This document shows positions 20,357 to 23,300 of a stretch of DNA of 64,000 nucleotides, in pieces. Positions within the stretch are counted from its first letter, which is position 1, and every line of letters begins with the position of its first letter. The stretch spans positions 130,809 through 194,808 of the forward strand of contig CAVQME010000001.1 of the NCBI GenBank assembly GCA_963713545.1, read 5' to 3'. A program made the position numbers and the translations under genes. Source of the DNA: an uncultured Actinomycetes bacterium (GTDB taxonomy: Bacteria; Actinomycetota; Thermoleophilia; RBG-16-64-13). The notes under the pieces were generated by a model that worked only from the letters and a program-made list of their open reading frames with translations, made no database searches and was not told the DNA's origin.

Positions 20357-23300
20357 CTATTCATCGACAGACACGTTAGACCCCTCCAGGTAGTCGGCGC
20401 CAAGCAAGGCCGACTCCGGCTCACCCAGGTCGCCGCTACCCTCTCCGAGCAGGACCTCGTCCACCTGTTCCTCCTCGTCCCCGCTCAGAGCCCAACCCCT
20501 GTCGGCCAGCCGAGACCGCACTTCTTCCAAGCTCTTCTGACCCAGGCCCGGAATGGCAAGGAGTTCCTTGGTGGTATGAGAGAGTAGCTCGCTCACCCGC
20601 TCGATGCCCGCCCTGCTGAGCACCGAGTGCACATAGGTGGGCAGGTCGAGGTCGTCCACCAGCGTGTTGTAGGCCTCGGAGTCGGCGGCGGAGCCGGTGA
20701 GCTGCGCCCACTGCTGCTCGGGCGTGAGCCCAAGCCCGCCGTCCGGCCGGGTCCCGATCACGTCGCCGAAGAAGTCCATCTCGGCGGGCATACCAGCCGT
20801 GGTCAGCTCGATGTTGCGATAGGGTCGGAGCCCGGTGGCGGCGGGGATGAGCTTGCCGATGATGACGTTCTCTTTGAGCCCCCGCAGTTCGTCCACCTTG
20901 CCCTCCAGGGCGGCATCGGTGAGGACCTTGGTGGTCTCCTGGAACGAGGCGGCCGACAGGAAGCTCTCCGTAGCCAGGGAGGCCTTGGTGATGCCCAGGA
21001 TCATCTCCTCATAGGTGGCCGGTTCTCCGCCGGCTTCCACCACCCGCTCGTTCTCCTGGTCGATGATGAGGCGATCGATCATGCGGCCCGGCAGGAAGCT
21101 GGTGTCTCCCGGCGTCTCCACCAGGACCTTCTTGGTCATCTGCCGGACGATGAGCTCCACGTGCTTGTCGTCGATCTGCACGCCTTGCTTGTGATAGACC
21201 TCCTGCACCTCGCTCACGATGTACCGGGCGGTCTCGAGGGCACCCCGGTACTGCAAGAGCTCGTGGGGGTTCAGCGAGCCCTTGTAGAGCTGGTCTCCGG
21301 CCTCCACCTGCTGGCCGTCCGTGACCATGAGGTCGGCCCGGCGGCTGATTATGTAGCTGTGCACTTCCGCGCCGGTATCGTCAAGGATATTGATCTTCTT
21401 GGTCTTGTCCGTTTCCTCGATCTGCACGGTGCCGGCAGCCTGCGTGATCTTGGCTATGCCCTTGGGCCTACGGGCTTCGAAAAGCTCGACCACTCGAGGA
21501 AGACCGTGCGTGATGTCGGCGCCGGCTACACCACCGGTGTGGAAGGTGCGCATGGTCAACTGGGTCCCCGGCTCGCCGATGGACTGCGCGGCGATATGCC
21601 CCACCGCCTCGCCGATCGCCACCAGGTCGTTGGCCGCCAGTGAGCGCCCGTAGCACAACTGACACACCCCGATCTCGCTCTGGCAGCCGAGCACGGAGCG
21701 GACCTTGAGCTTGAGATCCGGATGGTCGGCCACTGGATAGAGCGAGAGCAACCGCTGCAGCATGCGTTTGTTGAGCAGTTCGTTCCGCTCGTAGACGATC
21801 TCGCCGGTCTCCGGGTCGGCCACGTCGACCGCCAGCACCCGGCCGAGTAGGAGTTCGTTCAGGCGATCGTTCTTGCGCAGCGCCATCTCGATGTAGTTGG
21901 TGGTCCCGCAGTCGTGCTCGCGGATGACCACCTCCTGAGCCACGTCCACCAGGCGGCGGGTGAGGTAGCCCGAGTCGGCCGTCCTAAGAGCGGTGTCGGC
22001 CAGGCCCTTGCGGGCTCCGTGCGTGGAGATGAAGTACTCGAGCACGCCCAGCCCTTCCATGAAGTTGGCTTTGATGGGCCGCTCGATGATCTCCCCCTTC
22101 GGGGAGGCCATGAGACCCCGCATCCCCGCCAGCTGGCGGATCTGCTTGAAGGAGCCGCGGGCGCCAGAGTTGGCCATCATGTAGACCGGGTTGAGTCTTC
22201 GGAAGTTCTTCTCCATGGCCTCGGCCACCTTCTCGGTAGCGTCGGTCCACAGGTCGGTCACTCGTTCACGGCGCTCGGAGTCGGTGAGGTTGCCGCGCAG
22301 GTATTCGTCCTGGATGTGGCGCACCTTCTCCTCGTAGCCCTGCAGGATCTCGTCCTTGTCCGGCGGCACCACGATGTCGTTCTTGGAGATAGTGACCCCG
22401 GCCACGCTCGCGTACTTGAAGCCCATGTCCTTGAGCACGTCAAGGAGATGGGCCACAGCGATGGCGCCGTAGTACTCCACTAGGTCGCTCACGAAGGTGG
22501 ACATCTCGTTCTTGGTAAACACCCGGTTCTGGAACTCGTAGTCGTGCCGGCGGATGGTACCCTCCGGCCCCTCCTTGTCCCAATCCTCGCCGAAGTACTC
22601 CTGCAGCGCGGCCGCCACGGCTGAGTTGAAGAAGGCCCGGCCCACGGTGGTGAGCAGGCGTCCTCCCTCCCAGCGGAAGAGAACGGGGTCCTGAACGTCG
22701 ATGCGCTTCTCGGCGTAGGCGTGCTCCAGTTCGGCGATGGTGCCGAAGGGCCGGGGCTTGGGTTCCAGCGCCAAGAGGGCCTTGCCGTCATAGGGGTCGA
22801 TCTTGGAGAGGTCGGGGCCCTCGAAGTAGGTGAGGTAGTAGCAGCCCAGGATCATGTCCTGCGTAGGCACGGCGATGGGCCGGCCGTGGGCCGGAGAGAG
22901 GATGTTGTTGGAGGACAGCATGAGGATACGGGCCTCGGCCTGCGCCTCCACCGAGAGGGGCAGGTGAACGGCCATCTGGTCGCCGTCGAAGTCGGCGTTG
23001 AAGGCCGTGCACACCAAGGGGTGCAGTTGGATGGCCTTGCCCTCGATGAGCACCGGCTCGAAGGCCTGGATACCCAGCCGGTGAAGCGTCGGCGCCCGGT
23101 TCAGCATGACCGGGTGTTCGGAAATGACCTCTTCGAGGATGTCCCAGACCTCGGGGAACTCGCTCTCGACAAGCTTCTTGGCCGCCTTTATGTTCTGCAC
23201 CTGCTTGCGCTCCACCAGACGGCTCATGACGAAGGGCTTGAACAGCTCGAGAGCCATGGTCTTGGGGATGCCGCACTGGTGCAGTTTGAGCTCCGGACCG

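Follow-up and report, generated by a model that had tools for sequence, protein, structure and literature searches.

The C-terminal domain of the RNA polymerase alpha subunit (alphaCTD; PF03118; residues 249-329 of Escherichia coli RpoA, PDB 1LB2 and 3N97) represents the closest described relative of the element considered here, and to our knowledge models of bacterial transcription all assume two such domains per enzyme, both of them located on the alpha dimer. No residue of the E. coli domain matters more for binding of the UP element than R265; together with N268 it forms the core of the so-called 265 determinant, and the side chains of both residues reach into the A/T minor groove. The acidic patch at positions 258-261 of the E. 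coli domain contacts region 4 of sigma. The element in question is the C-terminal tail of RpoC, the beta' subunit, encoded within a stretch of 64,000 nucleotides (hereafter the window, meaning this whole stretch at its full length) of an uncultured Actinomycetes soil bacterium of the Thermoleophilia (GCA_963713545.1, contig CAVQME010000001.1, positions 130,809 to 194,808). As judged by profile searches and a structure model, this tail is a true alphaCTD-fold domain that is covalently part of beta', and confidence in its identity and conservation is high. Since the same genome also encodes an ordinary RpoA with a CTD of its own, each core enzyme would carry three alphaCTD-type domains, namely two canonical ones on alpha and a remodelled one on beta'.

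The window domain shares with the alphaCTD the fold, the family of hidden Markov models (HMMs), and the logic of a flexible tether. It differs in its location on beta', in the replacement of R265, N268, and C269 by Tyr, Ser, and Val (Val or Ile at 269), in the acidic tail following it, and in being present in one copy per enzyme besides the two canonical CTDs. A beta' subunit with a PF03118 domain C-terminal to region H is also represented by the NCBIfam family NF011498, referred to as type B in the following, whereas fusions of the window's kind are termed type A. In comparison with the window, type B proteins feature a longer linker, retain R265 and N268, carry the domain at or near the very C-terminus, and form a separate clade. 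Furthermore, the acidic repeats AR1/AR2 of NusA from gamma-proteobacteria are also C-terminal acidic modules of the double helix-hairpin-helix type, (HhH)2, on a transcription protein, and act via protein-protein contacts with the alphaCTD and via autoinhibition; however, they reside on a different host protein and show marginal similarity, the window domain being clearly nearer to the alphaCTD. By analogy, the CTD of Rpb1 may also be compared, as it extends the homologous largest subunit at the homologous terminus, near omega/Rpb6 and the RNA exit, is flexibly tethered, and provides a landing pad for factors, but it consists of disordered phosphorylated repeats, whereas the window features a folded HhH domain, and no sequence relationship exists between the two. 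The C-terminal region of Bacillus subtilis delta and region 1.1 of sigma70 are likewise acidic and disordered; the acidic tail in the window could, in a similar manner, mimic nucleic acid or mask its own protein, although, unlike these two, it appears to be a generic beta' C-terminus.

The rpoC gene, the parts of its product, and the gene for the ordinary alpha subunit were located in the window as follows:

20357 to 24682, minus strand: rpoC, an uninterrupted open reading frame (ORF) of 1441 amino acids with its stop codon at 20357-20359 (ORF list, Pfam, NCBIfam)
20804 to 24682, minus strand: beta' core, residues 1-1293, conserved, the final part being region H
20681 to 20803, minus strand: linker, residues 1294-1334 (alignment of 30 tails, dN/dS, AlphaFold2)
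20495 to 20680, minus strand: alphaCTD-like (HhH)2 domain, residues 1335-1396 (PF03118, AlphaFold2, Foldseek, residue census)
20360 to 20494, minus strand: acidic C-terminal tail, residues 1397-1441, disordered (composition, AlphaFold2)
923 to 1879, minus strand: rpoA, ordinary alpha subunit of 318 amino acids (Pfam RNA_pol_A_bac, RNA_pol_L, RNA_pol_A_CTD)

Residues 1335-1393 of RpoC matched the Pfam model PF03118 (RNA_pol_A_CTD; gathering cut-off 23.8 bits) with 45.1 bits (E 8e-12) when the whole protein was searched and with 49.4 bits (E 3.7e-13) when the isolated tail was used. The first-pass annotation of this DNA, which had proposed an alphaCTD-like domain at the RpoC C-terminus and had named a search with this model as a check, was correct in this respect, the match lying far outside what chance would produce, and the peptide quoted by it was found to be exact. 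Alignment with the RpoA encoded in the window (BLASTP) resulted in 39% identity over 64 amino acids without gaps (E 4e-14); the position-by-position match to this CTD that had been described thus holds for the alignment, but its L.R.GI signature fails at positions 265 and 268 (E. coli numbering). In phmmer searches of the tail against the PDB, alpha subunits were the only significant relatives (E 3e-9 to 1e-5), the acidic repeats of NusA scoring merely E 0.05-0.46.

An AlphaFold2 model of residues 1305-1441, for which 17 homologues served as input, featured a predicted local distance difference test score (pLDDT) of 84-87 across the alphaCTD-like domain. Foldseek superposed the domain model on isolated alphaCTDs of the PDB, including those of E. 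coli and B. subtilis (chains from 3n97, 1lb2, 3n4m, 1z3e, 8y5t, and 8hvr), at 0.7-0.9 Å over 63-70 residues with target template modelling (TM) scores of 0.8-0.94, which includes the superposition on the E. coli alphaCTD that had been suggested as a check, and the top 50 matches were all alpha subunits. The domain is positioned after region H of beta' and not behind the N-terminal dimerisation/assembly domain of alpha, for which a complete and separate rpoA is present. The CTD of this RpoA is canonical (PF03118 with 83.3 bits, approximately 926-1117, with R265, N268, and C269), and the earlier statement that beta' bears a third alphaCTD-fold copy can be maintained. Two other identities of the tail were considered, namely a generic HhH domain, which was rejected (HHH_5, HHH, and HRDC remained under their own cut-offs, and the structural neighbours were all alpha subunits), and a recent copy of the genome's own rpoA CTD, which found no support (the identity of 39% is similar to that with the alphaCTD of B. 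subtilis or E. coli).

A survey of a species-representative genome collection revealed the same extension in 30 loci from metagenome-assembled genomes (MAGs) of Thermoleophilia/Gaiellales/Actinomycetota. Core, domain, and acidic tail were encoded as a single ORF of 1432-1619 amino acids in more than 20 Thermoleophilia/Gaiellales MAG species (loci L002, L005, L006, L008-L011, L013, L015, L016, L018, L019, L021, L022, and L024-L030), with one tblastn high-scoring segment pair spanning residues 1-1441 at 86-94% identity in L002, L009-L011, and L016. The single-ORF fusion was also kept in genomes with an RpoC 62-75% identical to that of the window. The domain has truly been fused to beta' and is passed on vertically in a lineage of the Thermoleophilia/Gaiellales. 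Further loci were rejected as beta' tails: L032-L081 represent RpoA CTDs, and the Acidimicrobiia loci L050/L051, which match query residues 1-106, contain an ordinary rpoA followed by rplQ.

The ratio of nonsynonymous to synonymous substitution rates (dN/dS; NG86 medians, about 260-350 pairs per region) was 0.11 for the end of the core, 0.51 for the linker, 0.19 for the alphaCTD-like domain, and 0.55 for the acidic tail. The alphaCTD-like domain is under purifying selection. Furthermore, 26 columns were invariant in an alignment of 17 type A sequences, the replaced positions 265 and 268 being among them. The linker is poorly conserved in the 30 orthologous tails except for one helix segment; its pLDDT ranged between 48 and 58 with one predicted helix, and values below 50 were obtained for the acidic tail and most of the linker.

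Residues 1397-1441 comprise 14 D/E and no K/R and contain recurrent LLG motifs, and this composition is constant in every orthologue (9-17 D/E, 0-3 K/R) despite the dN/dS of 0.55. The D/E-rich tail pointed out previously is real; it is, however, not a special feature of this protein, as most of the sampled beta' C-termini are acidic (77% of 123 representative sequences were net negative), including that of E. coli, which ends in ...LAELLNAGLGGSDNE. The 3' end of E. coli rpoC (L086, positions 4275-4574), which was compared with positions 20360-20420 of the window, encodes ...ASLAELLNAGLGGSDNE, and the relatives of the window's protein end in ...EPETALLGGDxFDxxxFSDEE. Such an acidic peptide of the form 'LL..G(L)GG' at the C-terminus may be an ancient and so far unexplained trait of beta'. 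The acidic tail in the window appears to correspond to the ordinary acidic beta' C-terminus, shifted outward beyond the inserted domain.

To compare the residues of the DNA-reading face, the domains were aligned to E. coli RpoA (NC_000913) and numbered accordingly. The census comprised 42 RpoA CTDs, 96 type B domains, 2 domains of a tandem type, and 76 type A domains, with the following result:

Position 265: R in RpoA (42/42), type B (96/96), and the tandem type (2/2); Y in type A (76/76)
Position 267: variable in RpoA and in type B; R in the tandem type (2/2); H in type A (74/76)
Position 268: N in RpoA (42/42), type B (89/96), and the tandem type (2/2); S in type A (76/76)
Position 269: C in RpoA (40/42); mostly K in type B; N in the tandem type (2/2); V or I in type A (76/76)

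The window domain itself features Y, H, S, and V at positions 265, 267, 268, and 269, respectively, and retains G296, K298, and S299. Within type A, G294, G296, Q297, K298, and S299 are invariant (76/76 each), so that the 265 determinant (R265, N268, C269, G296, K298, and S299) is incomplete, positions 265, 268, and 269 being replaced. The acidic '261 determinant' is retained, with D258, D/E259, and D/E261 in 76/76 sequences each. The invariant type A columns map to the DNA face of the alphaCTD (263-269 plus the 294-299 hairpin) and to the acidic 258-261 patch.

Regarding the position of the domain on the enzyme, established structural knowledge places the end of beta' next to omega, close to the side of the RNA exit and away from downstream DNA. 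Omega wraps, or clasps, this part of the subunit, as Minakhin and colleagues are said to have described in 2001. Accordingly, the placement given in the first-pass annotation, next to both the RNA exit and downstream DNA, is right for the former and, by established structural knowledge, wrong for the latter.

It was hypothesized that the domain is a flexibly tethered, remodelled docking arm of the alphaCTD fold, with its anchor point close to omega and the RNA exit, a reading that we consider evenly balanced between right and wrong; confidence in the mechanism as such is low. Omega would hold the beta' C-terminus on the RNA-exit/upstream side, where the domain would be tethered by a disordered leash of approximately 40 residues, allowing it to move within some tens of angstroms of that point and to reach the RNA exit, the flap and sigma region 4, or upstream DNA. 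NusA, when bound to a paused complex, docks around the RNA exit on the flap tip, the C-terminus of omega, and the two alphaCTDs (PMC5842316). The beta' domain might hold a protein partner, the candidates being region 4 of sigma, a regulator, and an elongation factor, for instance NusA; alternatively, it might make sequence-independent contacts with a nucleic-acid backbone. Because the minor-groove residues are replaced and the same face is nevertheless the most conserved one, the domain would act as a docking arm whose ligand has changed, and not as a further alphaCTD that reads A/T-rich UP elements.

Several points weigh against this proposal. The retained residues G296, K298, and S299 leave DNA binding possible, and the Tyr could insert into the groove. 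The partners named are candidates only. Moreover, the position of the beta' C-terminus was taken from knowledge on E. coli, Thermus, and Pol II, and no confident contact between tail, linker, and domain was present in the AlphaFold2 model of residues 1305-1441.

The most interesting alternative to a docking arm, albeit rather unlikely, is a new nucleic-acid specificity, by which Tyr265, His267, and Ser268, together with the HhH hairpin, would grip nascent RNA or single-stranded DNA (ssDNA) through stacking and backbone contacts near the RNA exit or the upstream fork. Such a role would be consistent with the former DNA face, bearing the invariant Tyr and the near-invariant His, being the most conserved surface, with the tether near the RNA-exit side, and with the retained backbone-binding hairpin. 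However, this reading is purely inferential, the net charge of the domain is approximately -2.6, and RNA-binding alphaCTDs are not known.

That the domain acts as a canonical third alphaCTD, binding A/T-rich UP-element minor grooves and activators in the same manner as the CTDs of alpha and thereby providing a further contact to upstream DNA, is unlikely. The common fold, the membership in the same Pfam family, and the retained G296/K298/S299 hairpin and acidic 258-261 patch would agree with it, and the type B fusions, which keep R265 and N268, could indeed work in this way. For type A, in contrast, the substitution of R265 by Tyr and of N268 by Ser in 76/76 sequences, with Val/Ile in place of C269, removes the residue of greatest importance for UP-element binding in E. 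coli, while R265 and N268 are present in 42/42 RpoA sequences; the tether is, moreover, on beta' near omega and not on the alpha dimer. The proposal that the third copy represents an UP-element module is hence not favoured.

A decaying alphaCTD duplicate, functionless and tolerated as a passenger at a disordered terminus after losing its DNA residues, is very improbable. The loss of the canonical R265 and N268, the disordered and fast-evolving surroundings, and the existence of Solirubrobacterales-like sister lineages that do without the domain would be compatible with this explanation, but a dN/dS of 0.19 compared to approximately 0.5 in the flanks, the 26 invariant columns among 17 sequences (replaced positions included), the retention across RpoC proteins of 62-75% identity, and the apparently independent recurrence of comparable fusions argue against it.

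Finally, an artefact, in which a frameshift or a missed stop would have joined rpoC to a short alphaCTD gene located downstream of it, can be dismissed with near certainty. The tail search did result only in short proteins of 79-237 amino acids, some of which, encoded on contigs of 200-460 kb, bear the annotation 'RNA polymerase alpha subunit' or 'hypothetical', and the tail is a separate ORF in L001 and L088; however, these contigs stem from long-read assembly, and frameshifts have cut up rpoB, rpoC, and fusA alike. The frame is continuous from residue 1 to the stop in every short-read and in several long-read assemblies, many fragments pass directly from region H into the domain, neither a start codon context nor a spacer precedes the domain, and the GC content at third codon positions is 0.88 across the whole ORF.

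The continuous frame seen in the window is matched by the same single ORF in independent assemblies of its relatives, and broken rpoC genes are confined to long-read contigs rich in frameshifts (L001, L004, L007, L014, L017, L020, L031, L082, L085, and L088). As rpoB, rpoC, and fusA are frameshifted in such long-read MAGs, the beta' tail is mis-called as a separate gene in public annotations, routinely as one for an alpha subunit, which is a point to be considered in annotation. The names given to it include 'RNA polymerase alpha subunit', 'alpha C-terminal domain-containing protein', and 'hypothetical'. Since a separate rpsL follows next downstream of rpoC, the tail is also no fragment of the neighbouring gene.

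A search with the last 300 residues of RpoC, and subsequently one with a profile against 1.84 billion representatives, brought up further beta' proteins with PF03118 tails. Type B tails contain an acidic linker of 110-150 residues with the motifs LPxWAPxELKEIExLLP and D[IV]SxF..F.P[DE], and a domain of the form GVSxRWxNKF...G[IV]GxKA. The linker motifs were present in all nine type B tails aligned (P0082, P0103, P0080, P0182, P0145, P0147, P0149, P0176, and P0202) and in neither the window nor its 30 orthologues; LPxWAPxELKEIExLLP was common to all nine. The type B group comprises a high-GC soil lineage (L082, L088), Coriobacteriia (fragments labelled by NCBI as originating from Atopobiaceae and Eggerthellaceae, to which PGAP assigned names like 'alpha C-terminal domain-containing protein'), and a very divergent beta' of 1552 amino acids (P0202, L083/L084, 55% GC). 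In P0202 and the soil lineage, the acidic-hydrophobic motif D[IV]SxF..(V/T)F.P[DE] precedes the alphaCTD, and in the Coriobacteriia it follows it, which gives the impression of a short linear motif that has been permuted.

A third form is represented by P0148, a C-terminal beta' fragment of 557 amino acids with two tandem alphaCTDs after region H, both of which feature R265 and N268. The same fragment contains an extra insertion of approximately 90 residues in the trigger-loop region (IDALKLSAATREILKAAEIVKVEKLTALSLAELINLLP), which appears HhH-like by eye. In addition, P0230, a protein of 1031 amino acids, consists of 11 tandem PF03118 repeats (452 bits), which mostly retain R265 and N268, and features no N-terminal part of beta' or alpha.

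The family NF011498 (PRK14906, 1459 positions), reportedly listed in CDD under the title of a beta'/alpha domain fusion protein, includes the alphaCTD domain, and the window tail alone matches its positions 1306-1371 (28.9 bits, E 1.8e-7). As the domain is built into this curated family, the beta'-alphaCTD architecture is already known to databases. In the full-text literature searched, no paper describing or studying any beta'-alphaCTD fusion was found. The first-pass annotation had regarded the architecture as not described for characterised RNA polymerases, and this view stands for the literature searched but not for the databases, where NF011498 already covers a second beta'-alphaCTD family.

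The origins of these fusions were addressed by a neighbour-joining tree of 48 non-redundant domains of 60 residues (200 bootstraps), in which type A was monophyletic with 99% and type B with 100% support, A and B together obtaining just 16%. On average, type A domains are 40% identical to RpoA CTDs compared to 33-35% to type B, and the linkers of type A and type B have no motif in common. Among named proteins, those nearest to the window's beta' in core sequence are Solirubrobacterales-like (68% identity), and P0098, P0117, and P0134 (labelled Solirubrobacterales) as well as P0095/P0109 carry acidic tails of 70-80 residues with GLGGFG/LLD motifs and no alphaCTD. The start of these tails, PRGMDDVGLL, resembles the beginning of the linker in the window.

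Based on the tree, the closer identity to RpoA, the unlike linkers, and the domain-less acidic tails of the Solirubrobacterales-like proteins, the favoured scenario is that the alphaCTD was apparently inserted independently into a pre-existing acidic C-terminal extension, type B having arisen separately. Two circumstances weaken this argument, namely that the RpoA CTDs were picked by the query-derived pattern GQKSLEEV, which inflates their similarity to type A, and that the tree is based on 60 residues only. Type A constitutes a distinct variant, which probably evolved independently, of a beta'-alphaCTD fusion that is visible in databases but unstudied. A more far-reaching proposal, which we regard as doubtful, is that beta', at the terminus where Rpb1 bears its CTD, gained a tethered alphaCTD-fold module at least twice independently and that the Tyr/His/Ser face of the Thermoleophilia domain constitutes a new specificity on the RNA-exit side, for RNA/ssDNA or for a dedicated factor, turning it into a 'beta' CTD' landing pad that would couple elongation or termination factors, or the transcript, to the polymerase.

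With respect to the gene neighbourhood, rpoC resides within a block of the order secE-nusG-rplKAJ-rpoBC-rpsLG-fusA-tuf-S10 operon-...-rpoA. The adjacent genes (ORF list) are:

24692 to 28447, minus strand: rpoB, directly upstream of rpoC
19849 to 20268, minus strand: rpsL, next downstream of rpoC

The gene rpoB is also located upstream of rpoC in related loci, and the order rpoC-rpsL-rpsG-fusA recurs in L001, L082, and L088. All five Rpb1 domains of beta' were detected in RpoC by Pfam, and the full-length protein matched TIGR02386 with 1688.5 bits (cut-off 963.5) and NF011498 with 1773.8 bits (cut-off 1437). Rpb1 domain 1 (312 model positions) is stretched over RpoC residues 5-446 by an N-terminal insertion of approximately 130 residues. 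The insertion lies at approximately residues 130-330 (window 23700-24300), is charged, has a coiled-coil look, and is presumably a lineage-specific insert of the actinobacterial beta'.

For the 88-nucleotide spacer between rpoC and rpsL (20269-20356), two GC-rich hairpins were predicted at -47.6 kcal/mol, which is no better than shuffled sequences (z = -1.5). Consensus scans of the spacer detected neither a sigma70-like promoter nor a terminator on the minus strand, and a TTGCAG-17-TATACT promoter seen there by eye was dropped, as the consensus scan was empty. Elsewhere in the window, positions 38364-55013 contain a cluster with three molybdopterin oxidoreductases, two of them pyrogallol-hydroxytransferase-like, together with 4Fe-4S subunits, an aldehyde:ferredoxin oxidoreductase, an IclR regulator, a short-chain dehydrogenase/reductase (SDR), and an alanine dehydrogenase/PNT-type protein, which suggests anaerobic metabolism of aromatic compounds or aldehydes.

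Structural and biochemical study of these fusions appears worthwhile, for type A by means of the recombinant domain and for type B by means of cultivable Coriobacteriia, type B being experimentally accessible due to its occurrence in cultivable members of this class from the human gut (Eggerthellaceae, Atopobiaceae). Type A amounts to an experiment of nature in which the alphaCTD surface is put to a new use. With a third, conserved domain of the alphaCTD fold, the set of mobile contact modules available to RNA polymerase is changed in entire classes of the Actinomycetota; this domain hangs from a different corner of the enzyme, apparently having been invented more than once.

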